Shown: positions 2,821-48,488 of the stretch, piece after piece | Position numbering within the stretch: the first letter of the stretch is position 1 | Layout: every line of letters starts with the position of its first letter | Source of the DNA: an uncultured Actinomycetes bacterium | GTDB lineage: Bacteria; Actinomycetota; Thermoleophilia; Gaiellales; Gaiellaceae | DNA length: 64,000 nucleotides | Direction of reading: 5' to 3' | Assembly (NCBI GenBank): GCA_963720065.1 | Contig: CAVREH010000018.1 | Coordinates: forward strand, 7,083 to 71,082 | Translations under genes and position numbers: made by a program | The notes under the pieces: generated by a model | Database searches by the model: none | Seen by the model: only the letters and a program-made list of their open reading frames with translations | Told to the model about the DNA's origin: nothing

Positions 2821-5029
2821 ATGCCGCGCAAGCGGAAGAGGAAACTGCGCCCGAGACTCCCGAGCCGCGTCAAGAAGACGCGGACGAAGCGCAGCGCCCG
2901 CACGCGCACCCATCACCCCGAGCTCTGGGGGCTCGGGCGGTCGCGCTCGGCATCTTCCTCGGCGCCGTCCTCTACTTCGGCTGGAACGGCGGCTACGTCG
3001 GCGGCTGGCTGGGTGAGGGGCTCGACAAGCTGATCGGAGACGCGAAATACGTCGTGCCGGTCGCGCTCGTGGTGCTCGGCGCGCTGGTGGTGACGCGCAG
3101 CGCGCTCGTCGACGTCCGGCCGTTCCGCACCGGGATGGCGGTGCTCGGCTGCGGCCTCATGATCACGCTCGGCAAGGACCAGGGCGGCTACGTCGGCCAG
3201 CTGCTCGGCGGGGGTGTCGGGGTCGCGCTCGGCGCCACCGGCTCGCTCCTGCTCGGCGTCCTCCTGATGCTCGTCGGCTCGCTGCTGCTCACGGAGCCTC
3301 GCTCGGGGCGATTCTCCGCCGCTCGGGGCGCGGCCTCCACCACGCGCGGCGAAGAGCGCGGTCAGGGTCCCGTGACCGGTGGCAGCCACCGTGACGTAAG
3401 TGCTGACGCCGCCGCCCGCGCGGCCGGCGCCGTCGCACGCTTCTCCGGTCGACGCCGTCTCGGCCTTCCCCGACGTCGTCGGCGGGAGCTTCGTGCCGCC
3501 GCACGCCGGCGCGCAGCCCGCTCCGCTCCAGACTGAGCCGCCGGCGCTGTTCGAGGATCCACCCACGCTCTTCGACGAGGTCACCGCCGAGCACGCCGAG
3601 TACAAGCTGCCGGACGCCGGCGTCCTCCGGGTCTCGCCGGAGCAGAGCGACGACTCGGGCGAGACCGCGGCGCGCGTCGCGGAGCTCCTCGTACAGACGC
3701 TCTCGCACTTCGGCGTCGAGGCGACCGTGATCGGCCAGATCTCGGGCCCGCGCGTGACGCGCTACGAGCTCCAGCTGGCACCGGGGACGAAGGTCGCCAA
3801 GGTCGCGGCTCTGAAGGACGACCTCTCGTACGCACTCGCCACGACCGAGATCCGGATCCTCGCCCCGATCCCCGGCAAGCAGGCGGTCGGCGTCGAGCTC
3901 CCGAACCTCTCCCCGAACCTCGTCACCCTCGGCGACATCTACGAGCCGCTGCCCGCCACGGCCAGTCCGGTCGCCGTCTGGCTGGGCAAGGACATCTCCG
4001 GCGCGGCCGTCTGGACCGACCTCGCGCGGATGCCGCACCTCCTGATCGCCGGCACGACCGGCTCGGGCAAGTCGGGCTGCCTCAACACGGTCCTCACATC
4101 GGTCCTGCTGCGCGCGACGCCCGACGACGTGCGCCTGATCCTCATCGACCCGAAGCGCATCGAGCTCAGCCACTTCGAGTCGGTGCCGCACCTGCTCACG
4201 CCCGTCGTCTCGAGCCCGAAGGAGGCGAGTGCCGTCCTCGCCAACTGCCTCGCCGAGATGGAGCGCCGCTACGAGCGCCTCTCGTCGGTGCGCGCCCGCA
4301 GCATCAACGAGGCGAATCGCGCCTTCCGCCAGCGCGGCGAGCCGACGCTGCCCTACGTCCTCGTCGTGATCGACGAGCTCGCCGACCTGATGATGGTGGC
4401 GCCGCAGGCGGTGGAGCATGCCGTGATCCGGCTCGCCCAGAAGTCGCGCGCCGTCGGGATCCACCTCGTCCTCGCGACGCAGAGGCCGTCGGTGGACGTG
4501 ATCACCGGGATGATCAAGGCGAACGTTCCCTCGCGGATCGCCTTCGCCGTCTCCTCGCAAACCGACTCGCGCGTGATCCTCGACTCGGGCGGCGCGGAGT
4601 CCCTGCTCGGCCAGGGCGACATGCTCTTCAAGCCGCTCGGCACCTCGCGGCTCCAGCGCGTGCAGGGCGCGTACGTGTCGGAGGAGGAGATCGCGCTCGT
4701 CGTCGAGCAGACGCGCCAGCGCGAGCAGGAGCTCGACGAGAGCTACCTCGAGCTCCCAGAGGTCTTTGCCGAGCCCAGCGACGATTCCGACGGCGAGTTC
4801 GACCCGGACGACGATCCGCTGCTCGACAAGGCCATTGAGATCGTCGTCCAGACCCAGACCGCATCGCGTCTCCCTGCTGCAGCGGCGCCTGCGCGTGGGC
4901 TACACGCGCGCGGGCCGGCTGATCGACATGCTCGAGCGGCGAGGCATCGTCTCCGGCTACGAAGGCTCCAAGCCCCGGCGCGTGCTGGTGGACGAGAGCC
5001 AGTACCACTCGTACGCCGCGACCGAGTAG
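2821..5029 (+). pseudogene. ftsK: DNA translocase FtsK/SpoIIIE, at least 3 frameshifts (~2936, ~3293-3400, ~4860)
   Basis: Pieces lie in different frames. They are the basic N-terminus MPRKRKRK, TM segments (VALGIFLGAVLYFGW...), the motor domain (LIAGTTGSGKSGCLN, VVIDELADLMM, ATQRPSVDVITG) and the gamma winged helix ([27 protein letters not shown]). Confidence 0.9.
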
Positions 5030-5120
5030 TTCTCCTGGAGCTCGACCGCGAGCCGTTCTAAGATCGCCCGAGGCAATAGGATCGGCCGGTCAGGTCATGG
5101 GGAGAACAGGAGGGCACATC

Positions 5121-6166
5121 TTGAGATCGAGGACACGCACGCTTGGGATCTGTTTGCGGCAGCAGCAGTCGTCGCGCTCGTCGCGGCAGGCTGCGGCGGC
5201 GGTGGTGGTGGAGGGAGCTCGTCGACGACGAACGCGGCGAGCAGCTTCAAGGCGGCGCTCGTCAGCGACGTCGCCGGGTTCAACGACAACGGGTTCAACA
5301 AGAACCAGCTCTTGGGCCTGAACAAGATGCACAAGCCAGCTCGGGACACGGCGTATCCCGGCGGTCTCACATTCGTCGAGCGACTACGTCCCGAACTACA
5401 CAAGGTCGTCCACGACGGCGCCAACCTGATCATCGCCGCGGGCTACCTGCTCGGCGACACGGTGAAGAAGTACGCGAAGCAGTACCCGAAGATCAAGTTC
5501 GCGATCACCGACGATCCGGTGAGTGCCATCGGCGGCTACAAGAACGAGATCGGCATCACCTACGCGACGCAGGAAGGCGGCTGTCTCGCCGGCGTCCTCG
5601 CGGCGAAGGAAGCGCAGAAGATGAATGGCGGCAAGGTCGGCACCATCGGCGCGGTCGGCGGCATCAAGATCCCGCCGGTCGACTCGTACATCGCCGGCTA
5701 CCAGTACTGCGCCAACAAGGCCGTTCCCGGTACGAAGACGATCACGCAGTACTCGAACAGCTTCACCGACGAGTCCGCCTGCTCGACGGTGGCGCAGAAC
5801 GAGATCGGCTCCGGGGCCCAGGTGGTCTTCCAGGTCGCGGGCCTCTGCGGCGACGGTGCGCTCAAGGAGGCGTCGAAGCTCGGCAAGTGGGGGATCGGCG
5901 TCGACGTCGACGAGTACCACGTCGCGTCGAAGATCCTCACGAGCGCGACCAAGAAGACGGACGTGGGTGTCGAGACGGCCATCCGGGACGCGGAGTCCGG
6001 TCACTGGCCGGGCGGCAAGGACATCACCCTCGACCTGAAGAACAACGGCGTCGGCGTCGGCACGATCAGCCCGACGGTGCCGAAGTCGTGGATCAGCCTA
6101 ATGAACCAGTACAAGGCTCAGATCATCGCCGGCACGCTCACGCCGCCGGCAACGCTCAGCAAGTAG
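5121..6166 (+). pseudogene. BMP-family (PnrA/Med-like) ABC substrate-binding lipoprotein, frameshift in the signal peptide (~5150)
   Basis: GGAGG lies 7 nt upstream of TTG 5121 (MRSRTRTLG). After a shift comes LFAAAAVVALVAAGC, a lipobox, in the main frame. The body (GAVGGIKIPPVDSYIAGYQYCA, GIGVDVDEYH) is BMP-like. Confidence 0.8.
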
Positions 6167-6180
6167 CGACTGCCTGACAC

Positions 6181-6213
6181 GGCGGGAGGGCGCTTCGATT
6201 TCGCCCTCCCGCC
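6181..6213 (+). terminator. intercistronic GC hairpin (attenuator or partial terminator) between the binding-protein gene and the ABC ATPase gene
   Basis: Perfect 12-bp stem ggcgggagggcg / cgccctcccgcc with a 9-nt loop. No clear U-tract follows. Confidence 0.5.
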
Positions 6214-7763: not shown

Positions 7764-9004
7764 CCGAGCCGGAGAAAGGCCCCGCCGAGTCGCCCGAGCA
7801 GGCGGCGTCGACCGGGACCCTCGCCGCCCGGCTCTCGCTCAGCCAGCGCGCCGGCGGCATCGCCGTGCCGATCGCGACTGTCGTCCTGGCCTTCCTGATC
7901 GGCGGCCTCGTCGTGCTCGCCACCGGCCACAACCCGCTGCTCGCCTACCACGACATCTTCGACGGCGCCGGGCTGAACTGGATCTTCCACCCGACGACCA
8001 ACGTCCAGACCTCGATCGCCGGGTACAACCTCACCCAGACGCTGCTCCAGTCGACGACGCTCATCTTCACCGGGCTCGCCGTCGCCTTCGCCTTCCGCTG
8101 CGGGATGTTCAACATCGGCGGCGAGGGCCAGTACTTCGTCGGCCTCGTCATGGCGAACTGGATCGGGGTCAGCTTCGCCGGGATGAGCACCCTCCCGCAC
8201 GTTCTGCTCGCGATCGTGGGGGCGACGCTCGCCGGCGCGGCGTGGGCGGGCATCGCCGGCGTGCTGAAGGCCACGACCGGGGCGAACGAGGTGATCTCGA
8301 CGATCATGCTCAACTGGATCGCGATCTACACGGCGACCTGGCTCTTCGGCGCCGGTGGGCCGCTCCAGACCACGCAGCCGGGGCAGTCGACCAACCCGGT
8401 CTCCAACGACATCGCGCACACCGCCGAGTTGCCGGTGATCTGGGGGACGAAGGGCTTCCAGGGCCTCGACATCGGCTTCTTCATCGCGATCGCCGCGCTC
8501 GTCGTCTTCTGGGCGCTGATCAACCGCACCACGCTCGGCTACGAGGTTCGTGCCGTCGGCTTCAACCCGGACGCGGCCGCGTACGGCGGCATCAACGTGA
8601 AGAAGAACCTGGTCCGGGCGATGGCGATCTCCGGTGCATTCGCGGGCCTCGGAGGGGCCGTCGACATGCTCGGCTACCTCTACCACTACGGCTCGCTCGA
8701 CGTCCAGAACTCGGCGGCCGGCGGCGTCGGCTTCATCGGCATCGCGGTGGCCCTCCTCGGCCGCAACACGGCCGTCGGCGTCTTCCTTGGATCCGTGCTG
8801 TTCGGCGGCCTCATCTACGGGACGGGGCAGGGCCTGACCTCGAACGTGATCGCGCCGGATCTCGCGTCGAACGTGACCTTGATCATCCAGGGGCTTGTCG
8901 TGCTGTTCATCGGCGCCGACATCCTCATCCTCTACGTCTGGAACTCGCGGAAGAGGCTGCGCCCGAAGAAGCCTCCGCAGGCTCCGGCGAAGGCGGCCGC
9001 ATGA
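7760..9004 (+). CDS. ABC transporter permease (BMP/nucleoside system, first permease)
   Basis: ATG 7760 overlaps the ATPase stop (ATGA). The product is a polytopic membrane protein from MTEPEKGPAES... to the stop at 9004. The listed start at 7349 is Arg-rich read-through. Confidence 0.85.
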   Translation: MTEPEKGPAESPEQAASTGTLAARLSLSQRAGGIAVPIATVVLAFLIGGLVVLATGHNPLLAYHDIFDGAGLNWIFHPTTNVQTSIAGYNLTQTLLQSTTLIFTGLAVAFAFRCGMFNIGGEGQYFVGLVMANWIGVSFAGMSTLPHVLLAIVGATLAGAAWAGIAGVLKATTGANEVISTIMLNWIAIYTATWLFGAGGPLQTTQPGQSTNPVSNDIAHTAELPVIWGTKGFQGLDIGFFIAIAALVVFWALINRTTLGYEVRAVGFNPDAAAYGGINVKKNLVRAMAISGAFAGLGGAVDMLGYLYHYGSLDVQNSAAGGVGFIGIAVALLGRNTAVGVFLGSVLFGGLIYGTGQGLTSNVIAPDLASNVTLIIQGLVVLFIGADILILYVWNSRKRLRPKKPPQAPAKAAA

Positions 9005-10207
9005 CGGCCTGGGGGCAGCGCCTCGAGAACCCGGTCTCCGAGCGCCTGCGCGACCCCGCCGCGACCGGCTACGTCGCACTCTTCCTCGGCGCGTTCGCAG
9101 CCTTCCTGGCCATCCCGCCGATCGAGGCGCGCTCGCCGGCCTGGCCGATCGCCGTCGGCATCGTCGCCATCGCTCTCGGCATCTGGACGGCGACCCGCGG
9201 GCGGCGGAGGCTCGGCTGGGGGGCCGTCGCGGCCGGCCTGCTCGGGATCGGCCTCGGGATCCTCGCGACGCGCTCGGGGACCGGGAACCTCGAGACGGCC
9301 TTCGACGCGACACTCATCGCCCAGACGTTCGGGCTCGCGACGCCGCTCGTCTTCGGTGCGATCGCCGGGATGTTCTCCGAGCGGAGCGGCGTGATCAACA
9401 TCGGCCTGGAGGGAATGATGCTGATGGGCGCCTTCTTCGGCGTCTACGGCGCGGACAAGGGCGGCAGCTGGGTCGTCGGGCTGCTCGTGGGGATGGCGTC
9501 GGGCGGCCTGCTCGCGCTCGTCTATGCGTTCTTCGCGATCCACCTCCGCTCCGATCAGATCGTGGGCGGCACCGCTGTCAACTTCCTCGCGGTAGGCATC
9601 ACCGGCTACTTCTTCCAGCTGGTCTACAACGGCCAGGTCTCCGGCAACGTCTCGACGGTGCCGAACCTCGCACATCGGGGGGCTGGGGCACTTCTTCGAA
9701 GCCTCCATCGGCGACCTCAGCCTTCTGACGTGGGCCAGCTTCGCGCTCGTGATCGTCTCGTACATCGTGCTCTTCAAGACGCCGATCGGGCTGCGCATCC
9801 GCGCCTGCGGCGAGCACCCGCGCGCGGCGGATACCGTCGGGATCAACGTCTACCTCATCCGCTACAGCTGCGTCGTGCTCTCGGGCCTGCTCGTCGCGGT
9901 CGGCGGCGTCTACCTCTCGCTCGGTCCGCAGGGAAACGGGACGTTCATCGTCGACATGACGAGCGGGGAGGGCTTCATCGCGCTTGCCGCGATGATCTTC
10001 GGCAACTGGCGCCCGGCGGGCGCGTTCGCGGCCGCCCTCCTGTTCGGCTTCTCGAGCGCCCTCGCGCTCAAGCTCCAGGTGTACTCGAACCAGGCGGCGA
10101 CGCTGTTCGCCATCCTCCCGTACGTGCTCACGCTCGTCGCGGTCGCCGGCGTGATCGGCCGCACGGTCGCGCCCGCAGCCGACGGCAAGCCGTACGCGAA
10201 GCAGTAG
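9001..10207 (+). pseudogene. ABC transporter permease (second permease), one frameshift ~9672
   Basis: ATG 9001 overlaps the upstream stop. The frame switches at ...STVPNL / [38 protein letters not shown] and then continues as ORF 9749-10207. Confidence 0.8.
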
Positions 10208-10662
10208 CTCGCGTTGCCGGGCGAAGAGCTGCGCTCTTCGCCCGGGGTTGAAGGAACTGCGCCAACCGGAGACGCGGTCTCCGGTTGGCGCCGTGCAGTA
10301 GGGCTTGCCTGGGTTGGCACGCTTCCAACGCTTTGTTCCGTCGCGGGCGAGCAGGCTTTGCGTGCTCGCCCGCTGGTTCGCGGCGTCGTAACGTGCCGTT
10401 ACGCCGCCGCCTCGACCCACAGAGGCTCGAAACGCTCCAACCCGACCAACGACCAAAGCCCGGAGGCTAAGACACGGCGCAGCCGGACTTAGCCGCAGGC
10501 CGGACCGCGCTCGTGCCGGCCTCTGCCGCGCGCGAGCGCACGACACAGGCCTCCGCCCCACAGAGCATCAAATTGAAACTGCACGAAGCGGGCCGGAAAC
10601 CGCGCTTTCCGGCCCGCGGAGTTCCGTATCCCAGCGAGTGAGTGCGCAGCACTCGCGAGCTA
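10205..10662 (+). repeat. ~455-bp multi-hairpin intergenic element, copy 1 of 2 (candidate structured RNA or MITE-like repeat)
   Basis: Aligns end to end with 37276-37730. It runs from the TAG stop of the permease gene to the CTA (reverse TAG) stop of nadA. Terminal inverted repeat is tagctcgcg...cgcgagcta. At least 7 GC-rich hairpins are visible. Confidence 0.85.
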
Positions 10663-11595
10663 CGTGATCGAGACCATCCGCTCGATCGCCAGGCGGGCGC
10701 GGTCGGCCAACTCCGGCTCGACTGTGATGCGGTGCTTGCCGTCGCGGAGGGAGTCGCGGACCTTCTCGAGCGTGGTCAGCTTCATGTAGCGGCACTCGGC
10801 GTCCTCGCGCACCGCTTCGAACCGCTTGCCGGGCGCCTCCTGCTGCAGGCGGTGGATGATTCCCGTCTCGGTCGCGATCAGGAAGCGCTGCTTCGGGGAG
10901 CGCTTCGCGTAGTCGATCATCTTCTCGGTCGAGAGGATCTGCGTGCGCTCGTTGCCGAACGCCATCGCCTGGCTCGCGCAGCCGCACTCGGGGTGGACGA
11001 GCAGGTCGGCGTCGGGCGCCTCGTCCTGCCAGCGCTCGATGTCGGCCGGGCGGATGCCCGCGTGGACGTGGCACTCGCCGAGCCAGATCGTCAGCTTGCG
11101 GCCGGTCACCTTCTCGAGCCAGAGGCCGAGGTACATGTCCGGAAGGAAGAGGATCTCCTGTTCCGGCGGGATCGCCTCGATCACCGACTTCGCGTTGCCC
11201 GAGGTGCAGCAGTAGTCGCTCTCCGCCTTCACCTCCGCAGTCGTGTTCACGTAGGAGACGACGACCGCGCCGGGATGCCGCGCCTTCCACTCACGCAGCT
11301 GCTCCGCGTCGATCGAGGCGGCGAGCGAGCAGCCGGCGCCGAGGTCAGGGAGGAGGACCGTCTTCTCCGGGCTGAGGATCGCCGCCGTCTCGGCCATGAA
11401 GTGGACGCCGCAGAAGACGATCGTCTGCGCGTCGGTCGCGGCCGCCTGGCGCGACAGGCCGAGCGAGTCGCCGACGTAGTCCGCGACGTCCTGTACCTCC
11501 GGGCGCTGGTAGTTGTGGGCGAGGATCACGGCGTTCTTCGCGGTAGCGAGAGCGCGTACTTCGTCGTGCAGGGTCGTGGACGGGGCGACGGTCAT
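10660..11595 (-). CDS. nadA: quinolinate synthase NadA
   Basis: MTVAPSTTLHDEVRALATAKNAVILAHNYQRPEVQDVADYVGDSL, FCGVHFMAETA and HPECGC match the NadA family. The start overlaps the nadC stop (ATGA). Confidence 0.93.
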   Translation of the reverse strand: MTVAPSTTLHDEVRALATAKNAVILAHNYQRPEVQDVADYVGDSLGLSRQAAATDAQTIVFCGVHFMAETAAILSPEKTVLLPDLGAGCSLAASIDAEQLREWKARHPGAVVVSYVNTTAEVKAESDYCCTSGNAKSVIEAIPPEQEILFLPDMYLGLWLEKVTGRKLTIWLGECHVHAGIRPADIERWQDEAPDADLLVHPECGCASQAMAFGNERTQILSTEKMIDYAKRSPKQRFLIATETGIIHRLQQEAPGKRFEAVREDAECRYMKLTTLEKVRDSLRDGKHRITVEPELADRARLAIERMVSIT

Positions 11596-36408: not shown

Positions 36409-37278
36409 ATGGAACATTCCTTTGCGGCTGAGGGCCCGGCCTCCGAGTCGGCACCTGCCGAGGACCCGCTCAAGCTCTACGTGCGCCAGATCGGCGGCGG
36501 CGCGCTGCTCACGCGCGAGGAAGAGCGAGAGCTCGCCCGCCGCAAGGATGACGGCGACGAGCTGGCGAAACGCAAGCTGATCGAATCGAACCTGCGGCTC
36601 GTGATGGCGATCACACGCAACTACACGAAGGCCAGCGTCCCGCTGCTCGACCTGATCCAGGAGGGGAATCTCGGCCTGATCCGCGCCGTCGAGAAGTTCG
36701 ACTACCGGCTCGGCTACAAGCTCTCCACCTACGCGACCTGGTGGATCCGCCAGGCGATCACGCGCGCCCTCGCGGACCAGGGACGGACGATCCGCCTGCC
36801 CGTGCACGTGGCCGACCAGGTTCGGCGGCTGCTCCGGGCTCGCCGCCAGCTGGCACAGAAGTTCAACCGCGAGCCGACGCTCGCCGAGCTCGCGCGCGAG
36901 ACGCAGCAGACCGAGGAGCGGGTGCGCGAGCTGCTCGAGCTCGTCGAGACCCCGGTCAGCCTCGAGACGCCGGTGGGCGACGGTGAGAGTCTCTACGGAG
37001 ATCTGATCGAGGACGTCAACGCGCTCGCCCCGCACGAGCAGTCCGCTCAGCAGGCGCGGGGGAGGGAACTGGCGGGGGCACTCGACCAGCTGAACCCCCG
37101 CATGCGGCGCGTGCTCTCGCTCCGCTTCGGTCTGGACGGCGAGTCGCCCCGGACGCTCGAAGAGGTGGGCACCCAGCTCGGCATCACCCGCGAGCGGGTC
37201 CGCCAACTCGAGACGCGCGCGCTACGCGAGCTTCGCACCGCCAATCCGGGCCTCGAGCACTACCTCCGCGCCGAATAG
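36409..37278 (+). CDS. RNA polymerase sigma factor, sigma-70 family group 1/2-like (289 aa)
   Basis: Regions 2-4 are present: [64 protein letters not shown] and [20 protein letters not shown]. Confidence 0.9.
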
Positions 37279-37730
37279 CTCCGGACGAAGAGCTGCGCTC
37301 TTCGCCCGGTCCTGAAGGAACTGCGCCAACGGGAGAGCGCGGTCTCCCGTTGGCTTCGTGCTGAGGGCACATTGGGTTGGCTCGCTTCCGACGCCTTCTT
37401 CCGTCGCGGGCGAGCAGGCTTTGCGTGCTCGCCCGCTGGTTCGCGGCGTCGTAACGTGCCGTTACGCCGCCGCCTTGGCGCTACAGAGGCTCGAGACGTT
37501 TCAACCCGTGCTGCGCAAGAGGCCGGAGGCTAAGACATCCGCAAAGCGGTGACTTAGCCGCAGGCCGGACTGCGCTCGTGCCGGCCTCTTGCCGCGCGCG
37601 AGCGCACGACACAGGCCTCCGACCCAACAGAGCCTCAAAGCGAAACTGCACGAAGCGGGCCGGAAACCGCGCTTTCCGGCCCGCGCAGTTCCGTTATGCC
37701 AGCGAGCGAGTGCGCAGTACTCGCGAGCTA
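37276..37730 (+). repeat. ~455-bp multi-hairpin intergenic element, copy 2 of 2
   Basis: Collinear with 10205-10662. It includes an identical 68-nt block (gcgggcgagcaggctttgcgtgctcgcccgctggttcgcggcgtcgtaacgtgccgttacgccgccgcc). It is bounded by the TAG of the + sigma gene and the CTA of the - sigma gene. Confidence 0.85.
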
Positions 37731-48354: not shown

Positions 48355-48429
48355 TCGGGGCGGCGAGATTCGAACTCGCGACCTTTGGTCCCCCAGACCA
48401 ACGCGCTAACCAGGCTGCGCCACGCCCCG
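48355..48429 (-). tRNA. tRNA-Pro (anticodon GGG)
   Basis: Reverse-strand cloverleaf. Acceptor is CGGGGCG/CGCCCCG, D arm is GCGC-AGCCTGGTTA-GCGC and the anticodon arm is TTGGT-CTGGGGG-ACCAA. T arm is GCGAG-TTCGAAT-CTCGC and the discriminator is A. No CCA is encoded. Confidence 0.93.
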
Positions 48430-48488
48430 CAGCGAGGCAAACCGTAGCTACTCGGGACCCGTGGGGGGCTCTCGGTCGTATCGCAGGC

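Follow-up and report, generated by a model that had tools for sequence, protein, structure and literature searches.

Bacterial miniature inverted-repeat transposable elements (MITEs), such as Correia/NEMIS of Neisseria, ERIC/IRU of enterobacteria and RUP and BOX of pneumococci, are non-coding units of 100–500 bp with terminal inverted repeats. Scattered between genes, mostly at gene 3′ ends, they leave filled and empty sites among relatives and form strong hairpins if co-transcribed; BOX elements are in addition modular. GTAG-tagged repetitive extragenic palindromes (REPs), REP doublets forming hairpins (REPINs) and bacterial interspersed mosaic elements (BIMEs), mobilised by RAYT/TnpA-REP proteins, consist of imperfect palindromes of 20–40 nt with a conserved GTAG (or CGTC) head that are abundant singly or as short inverted doublets, at tens to hundreds per genome, and form in BIMEs a mosaic of hairpin types; RAYT genes are flanked by the same REPs. 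GTAG REP termini have been reported to supply, in many cases, the TAG stop codon of the flanking open reading frames (ORFs), and the repeats to favour the space between convergent or unidirectional gene ends (PMC3733652). A third group, the transposon-borne RNAs (IscB/TnpB omega RNAs such as HEARO, IS605-orfB motifs, IS110 bridge RNAs and PATE derivatives), are structured non-coding segments of several hundred nucleotides within mobile elements, conserved better than neutral sites. Here we describe an element of 400–510 bp that is present twice in a 64-kb stretch of DNA (71% GC; hereafter, the window) from the Gaiellaceae, an abundant, uncultured soil lineage, and that bears a likeness to all three groups. 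The two intervals are most probably copies of a non-autonomous mobile palindromic element, a new MITE-like family with REP/REPIN/BIME-like features that targets TAG/CTA junctions.

The Gaiellaceae element also departs from each of these systems. Compared with known bacterial MITEs, it is larger and far more structured (about nine conserved helices), its interior is more conserved than its ends, its hairpin termini are interchangeable, and its target is TAGCTA, made by abutting stop codons, rather than TA; we know of no cognate insertion sequence. Its hairpin units differ from REPs in that none was found standing alone in the ~200 kb of the window and related loci, and therefore the repeated unit is the whole composite of ~450 bp; for the same reason, membership in the classical REPs was considered and rejected. 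The spacer between the inverted units measures ~370–400 nt and has a conserved structure of its own, in contrast to the tens of nucleotides typical of REPINs, and the GTAG head is complete in only some copies. Unlike the transposon-borne RNAs, the element has no Rfam match at E ≤ 10, no nuclease or recombinase gene nearby and, given that the flanks beside its target vary, no apparent guide–target relation; true terminal inverted repeats and dyad symmetry, both lacking in IS200/IS605, are present.

The two window copies, A and B (Table 1), align in the same orientation with 88.3% identity over 453 nt (E = 1.6e-156), and no other copy lies in the window. An initial annotation of the sequence had described this end-to-end alignment with an identity of about 85–90%, which agrees with our value, and an identical block of 68 nt, which we measured as a run of 77 nt. 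The GC-rich hairpins listed there are all present, and the stem differences it named between the copies do preserve pairing. Minimum free energy (MFE) z-scores against dinucleotide shuffles were −9.2 and −10.2 for the + and − strands of copy A and −8.0 for the + strand of copy B. Both copies had been said to run from a + strand TAG stop to the CTA stop of a convergent − strand gene, and ORF coordinates bear this out: copy A extends from the stop of a BPD_transp_2 permease (TAG, 10205–10207) to that of NadA (CTA, 10660–10662), and copy B from the stop of one sigma-70 ORF (TAG, 37276–37278) to that of another (CTA, 37728–37730). The claim that the ends are inverted repeats is correct for copy A, where the outer repeat is perfect over 10 nt (GTAGCTCGCG/CGCGAGCTAC), but in copy B only 6 nt match (TAGCTC/GAGCTA). 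It is scarcely conceivable that the similarity arose by chance or through faulty assembly, for instance from a chimeric join or a duplicated contig end. A frameshift in the adjacent permease gene may point to some errors in the assembly, but the element recurs, at these and at further loci, in independent assemblies from several projects, including metagenome-assembled genomes (MAGs) as well as JGI and ENA metagenomes, and the strength of the match itself speaks against coincidence.

Dispersed copies were recovered when the search was extended beyond the window. The collections were scanned with exact patterns, among them a 20-mer from the most conserved block (in hairpin H4), and yielded about 30 further copies, whole or fragmentary, from soil metagenomes and four Gaiellaceae-like MAGs. 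The 20-mer alone marked at least 12 genuine loci in the four MAGs (at least seven in MFD08988.bin.3.3, three in MFD00031.bin.1.56, two in a Gaiellaceae MAG and one in MFD05841) and at least 11 soil-metagenome contigs; two other matches, L008 and L022, were rejected as chance matches in a coding gene of an unrelated bacterium. Family copies align end to end at 72–96% identity. A blastn search of a plasmid collection and two pattern scans of viral contigs gave no match to the element, and no description of such an element was found in the literature on Gaiellales repeats or RNAs. As far as sampled, the repeat family is confined to the Gaiellaceae (Thermoleophilia), to which the window itself is assigned by the names on its neighbouring proteins. 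Copies within one genome are 86–96% identical, save for a divergent subfamily copy, L001, which is about 80% identical to its genome-mates. In contrast, copies at orthologous sites of different genomes (L010/L005, L007/L014 and window copy B/L029) are only 77–84% identical, with coding flanks at 79–92%. Higher similarity within genomes than between orthologous copies is what gene conversion among the repeats, or their repeated re-insertion, would produce.

The insertion point was located by comparison of filled and empty states at site A, the permease/nadA junction that holds copy A. The closest available relative at this site, L045 (NadA 93% identical), has no element. Its empty site reads ...AAC CAG TAG CTA CGT GAT CGA GAC CAT..., with two abutting stop codons forming the palindrome TAGCTA, and its NadA ends ...SIT*, as does the NadA of the window. 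The filled site of the window reads ...AAG CAG TAGCT-CGCG[...]CGCG-AGCTA CGT GAT CGA GAC CAT.... The change from TAGCTA to TAGCT...AGCTA places the element inside TAGCTA, with a target duplication of at most AGCT (4 bp), GC or none being equally possible (0, 2 or 4 bp). Two other models were rejected. Duplication of TA, as in IS630/Tc1-like elements, is compatible with the TA carried by all ends, but the empty L045 site (CAGTAGCTACGT) cannot yield the filled one; and the element does not supply the stop codons at site A, since they pre-exist in the empty site.

Site A is also empty, with a 6-nt spacer, in L044 (87%) and in the P0125 contig (91%; from gene coordinates only). In L034/L035 (86%), only the 3′ half of the element is present, and its orientation relative to the flanking genes is opposite; the element must have entered this junction a second time, independently, or have been turned round when its inverted ends recombined. 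A third state of the site is seen in L033 and L036–L043, where permease and nadA are separated by an ORF of 117 aa that has no Pfam match. In L036, the stop codon of this ORF overlaps that of nadA in CTAG (CACTAGGCC); in L033, the ORF occupies 11044–11394 and ends about 100 nt from nadA.

Across the family, the element lies beside housekeeping genes that have no relation to one another (permease, NadA, sigma factors, histidine kinase, ABC ATPase, NlpC/P60 and 3D-domain hydrolases, PfkB, PHO4, response regulator). Among the 19 copies with a callable frame, 15, representing about nine distinct loci, have a convergent downstream gene; an upstream gene pointing towards the element is present for at least 20 of 25 copies. 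Nearly all right ends read ...CGCG-AGCT-A, the CTA being the stop codon of the convergent gene, and left ends lie within 0–12 nt after TAG or TAA. A full GTAG head is found in copy A, L029 and L020, and in the unoccupied GTAGCTAC sites; other copies have ATAG, CTAG or CTAA. Unoccupied TAGCTA is rare (6 in 440 kb), and several instances read GTAGCTAC beside stop codons. With convergent genes 0–6 nt apart, the TAG/CTA junction is one of the few places for this hexamer where an insertion disrupts nothing. The element is therefore bounded exactly by convergent stop codons because its insertion target consists of two abutting TAG stops, and not through a function in untranslated regions (UTRs). Such bounding has a precedent, since GTAG REP termini are reported to give TAG stops (PMC3733652). 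In four assemblies (L007, L014, L015 and L019), the same convergent gene for a 3D-domain, peptidoglycan hydrolase-like protein lies downstream of the element; its last few residues vary in length and sequence at the junction, and the upstream flank of L007/L014 differs from that of L015/L019.

At site B, the sigma/sigma junction that holds copy B, relatives whose sigma factors are 94–100% identical at the amino acid level carry the element in successive states of decay. L029 has a full copy with d-type ends. In L030/L031 (10871–11221), the sequence agrees with L029 at 100% identity over the first 95 nt, but H3–H4 have been lost and the central ~40 nt run in the inverse direction to those of L029, a state that looks like the outcome of palindrome-mediated rearrangement. 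The whole 5′ half is missing from L027, where the sigma protein is ~100% identical, and a remnant of ~160 nt is left in L028. These deleted and rearranged copies mean that the copy at this locus is dispensable, its most conserved core included. In the same neighbourhood (L027–L031 at about 4400–6200 and 8390–9090; window at about 31–36 kb), there are an OLD-like TOPRIM/AAA_21 gene and an HNH_repeat gene, and several neighbouring gene calls are fragmented in some assemblies. A further filled/empty pair is found at an mreC-like gene, filled in L021 and empty in L013 and L018; the left junction in L021 is lost at the contig end. There, the element (within 1–400) lies directly upstream of the start of the mreC-like gene, and L013 (at ~3100) and L018 (at ~1540) show the end of an mreB-like gene and no element.

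The same contexts bear on a less likely account, by which the element was mobile in origin and was then exapted, its hairpins being kept as a bidirectional terminator or insulator, or as a 3′-end stabiliser for both flanking transcripts. Most copies do lie between convergent 3′ ends, each stop codon is followed within 0–12 nt by a perfect GC-rich hairpin on either side, all degenerate copies at site B retain hairpins beside the downstream stop codon, and roles of this kind have been credited to REP and BIME elements (PMC3733652). The slightly higher conservation of the element than of four-fold sites and the excess of G-U over A-C in alignment cells, both described below, also fit this account. 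However, close relatives have 0–6 nt between the same two genes, either half of the element is lost in some copies, U-tracts and a terminator consensus are absent, and the convergent placement is equally explained by a TAG/CTA target together with selection against disruptive insertions.

In its anatomy, the element comprises a core of ~370 nt (helices P1, H2, P3, H3, P5, H4, H5, H6 and H7) flanked by GC-rich terminal hairpin modules of four interchangeable types, a to d. The modules are palindromes of 25–32 nt, and TAG or TAA is always present. Intact copies (L025, L029, L001, L015, L019 and L020) have perfect or near-perfect terminal inverted repeats of ~32 nt, the left end reading TAGCTCGCGA...TCGCTCGCTGGG and the right end being its exact complement, ending ...CGCGAGCTA. 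The end pair reads TAGCTCGCGA...TCGCGAGCTA, and a palindrome of joined ends would read ...CTCGCGAGCTCGCGAG.... In the window copies, the left b module is swapped for an a module, and it is because of this replacement that their outer repeat is only 10 nt (A) or 6 nt (B) long; other copies have a b or d module at the position of the a module of copy A. The left terminal TAG of copy A doubles as the permease stop and as the left half of the TAGCTA target. The core, too, is a long, degenerate palindrome, in which H2 resembles H7, H3 resembles H6 and H4 resembles H5 in inverted order. Alignment of five cores with their own reverse complements gave scores of −86 to +108, compared with about −150 to −170 ± 27 for shuffles; the two window copies showed the weakest dyad signal, their scores of −86 and −20 lying about 3 and 5 SD above those of shuffles. 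A coding function was rejected: open frames shift between copies through 1-nt indels, leaving no consistent reading frame, and a protein search with a translated spurious frame returned two weak, uninformative matches.

Table 1. Parts of the two window copies, with positions in the window, and the terminal module types of the family
Feature	Positions	Strand	Remarks
Copy A with both flanking stop codons	10205..10662	+	88.3% identity to copy B; family members in other genomes
Copy A, left terminus TAGCTCGCG; pairs with 10654-10662	10205..10213	+	Inverted repeat; comparison with empty site L045
Copy A, terminal hairpin module a (CCGGGCGAAGAGC-TGC-GCTCTTCGCCCGG)	10217..10245	+	
Copy A, core, ~370 nt (GAACTGCG...AGTTCC)	10254..10625	+	Core hidden Markov model matches, alignment, consensus structure, pair counts
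Hairpin H2, imperfect inverted copy of H7	10256..10294	+	6 pairs with double changes
Hairpin H3	10343..10373	+	4 pairs with double changes
Hairpin H4, nearly invariant; holds the 20-mer used in collection scans	10380..10410	+	
Hairpin H5 (GGCTAAG...CTTAGCC, inner stem variable)	10460..10499	+	
Hairpin H6, sequence almost invariant family-wide	10507..10539	+	12/14 pairs never vary
Hairpin H7	10588..10617	+	7 pairs with double changes
Copy A, right module b′ (CCCAGCGAGTGAGTGC-GCA-GCACTCGCGAGCTA) = right terminal inverted repeat; final CTA = nadA stop (− strand)	10630..10662	+	
Copy B with stop codons of two convergent sigma-70 genes	37276..37730	+	
Copy B, terminal hairpin module a	37281..37309	+	
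Copy B, core	37318..37692	+	
Copy B, right module b′, ends in AGCTA	37699..37730	+	
Module type a: GGGCGAAGAGC-TGC-GCTCTTCGCCC			
Module type b: GCGAGTGC-TGC-GCACTCGC			
Module type c: GGAAACGC..GCGTTTCC			
Module type d: GCGAAGC..GCTTCGC			

Conservation of the fold was assessed on an alignment of 30 sequences with an RNAalifold consensus, using a shuffle control that takes no account of relatedness. At the consensus pairs, 94.6% of cells are standard-paired, compared with 36–42% when partners are slid. As the initial annotation had proposed, compensatory changes are abundant; however, they are confined almost wholly to local palindromes, and the long-range helices are barely supported. Of 29 covarying pairs, 23 lie in H2, H3, H4, H5 and H7, whereas only two lie in P3 and none in P1 or P5; pairing in the other inner helices is no more than 70–79%. 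Double changes in quasi-palindromes can arise in a single step of replication template switching, without selection on an RNA (PMC8794818, PMC7202029). The covariation thus means that the palindromes are kept; an RNA function is not thereby demonstrated. A U-G wobble explicable only with the + strand as the RNA had also been noted, but family-wide support for a preferred strand is weak: counted by columns, G-U exceeds A-C by only 30 to 21, and the MFE difference between + and − strands of 15 cores averaged −2.6 ± 9.7 kcal/mol, with no consistent preference. The failure of the initial annotation to match the element to known RNA signatures was confirmed by Rfam, which gave no match on the element at gathering thresholds or at E ≤ 10, and none in ten other element-bearing loci. 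No sigma-70-type promoter or intrinsic-terminator consensus beyond chance, and no U-tract, was seen in the element.

Several observations weigh against a mobile repeat as the whole explanation. Gene tables of ~440 kb of flanks show no transposase or autonomous partner, and copy number appears modest (two per 64 kb here, at least seven in one MAG). A target duplication is inseparable from the inverted repeat, because both the target and the ends are palindromic. Double-sided changes affect 29 pairs and 105 cells, compared with 19 and 31 in shuffles, and none of 500 shuffles reached the observed values; G-U outnumbers A-C by 102 to 44 in cells. Unlike many MITEs, the element is more conserved in its interior than at its ends, as seen in the 77-nt identical block and the nearly invariant H4 and H6. 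Finally, element identity is 0.83 where four-fold degenerate sites of the flanking sigma genes are at 0.72–0.75, although at short distance the element behaves neutrally (0.90, compared with 0.88–0.90 at four-fold sites). Together, the interior conservation, the double changes, the slower-than-four-fold divergence and the G-U excess leave room for selection on a single-stranded form.

It is on these grounds that the ~370-nt core might be taken for a structured RNA, or single-stranded DNA, that has its own function, either as a scaffold or guide for the mobilising enzyme or as a trans-acting large non-coding RNA present in several gene copies. We consider this unlikely. The pairing of nearly all cells, the excess of double changes over every shuffle and the slower-than-synonymous divergence favour it, as does the near-invariance of H4, H6 and the unpaired segments across genomes, together with a conserved U.C mismatch in H4; without an Rfam match, such an RNA would be new. 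Against it stand the restriction of covariation to local palindromes, for which template switching offers a route without RNA selection, the global dyad symmetry, folding energies that favour neither strand, the lack of a promoter consensus, the deletion of the core in close relatives and the absence of an associated protein gene near any copy. A specific version, to which we likewise attach little weight, is that the core would serve as an RNA or DNA cofactor for a recombinase or nuclease that acts in trans and directs the element to GTAG/CTAC stop junctions, and would represent a new class of transposon-borne structured RNA. Were the core such a cofactor, the finding would matter much more.

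In favour of a mobile palindromic element, we observe a family with inverted ends, empty and filled sites with a defined insertion point, a difference in orientation, a decay series and a characteristic within-genome similarity. The initial annotation had left the choice between a structured RNA and a MITE. The MITE-like alternative agrees with the ~32-nt repeats, the dispersed copies, the empty and filled sites, the copy in opposite orientation and the decay; the RNA alternative is not established. Of the marks of a MITE, terminal inverted repeats, a non-coding make-up with a size below about 0.5–0.8 kb, dispersed copies and insertion polymorphism were found. Of those of a structured RNA gene, the element lacks promoter and terminator consensus, a single favoured strand and upkeep at its loci, the core being deleted or rearranged in close relatives and site A being empty in the closest one.

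We propose the following course of events. In these compact genomes of 71% GC, TAGCTA arises where convergent TAG stops abut, and the element integrates into this palindrome, often as GTAG/CTAC, between the two stops. Both genes keep their stop codons, so that insertion is harmless. Copies are then homogenised within a genome, through gene conversion or renewed insertion, and decay by deletion or by inversion between internal repeats. The mobilising enzyme presumably acts in trans, with a DDE transposase, an HUH/RAYT-type protein or a site-specific recombinase as candidates. The truncated copies L016 and L017 were considered as a possible autonomous partner and rejected; their neighbours, judged by eye from ORF translations, are an SGNH-like hydrolase and an ABC1/UbiB-like kinase, and no transposase was seen. 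Once inserted, the element would probably be transcribed together with its neighbours as a 3′ UTR common to both, with a possible side effect as a hairpin barrier or terminator.

An odd structured block of 450 nt between two stop codons thereby gains a concrete explanation as a mobile element whose target is created by the abutting stops themselves. The Gaiellaceae gain a well-defined repeat family that may serve as a marker of strain-level variation. For the discovery of RNA motifs, the element is a caution, as palindromic repeats can give impressive "covariation" without RNA function.

Two further features of the window may be added. The permease gene upstream of copy A (9001–10207) is split over two reading frames; in a tblastn search, an orthologous permease of 403 aa matched 9001–9699 in frame 1 and 9671–10207 in frame 2, which suggests a frameshift near 9670–9700, either an assembly indel or the mark of a pseudogene. 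The sole Rfam match in the window is a tRNA gene on the − strand (48355–48429, 64.6 bits), and the only unoccupied TAGCTA of the window, at 48445 (in CCGTAGCTACTC), lies 16 nt from it.

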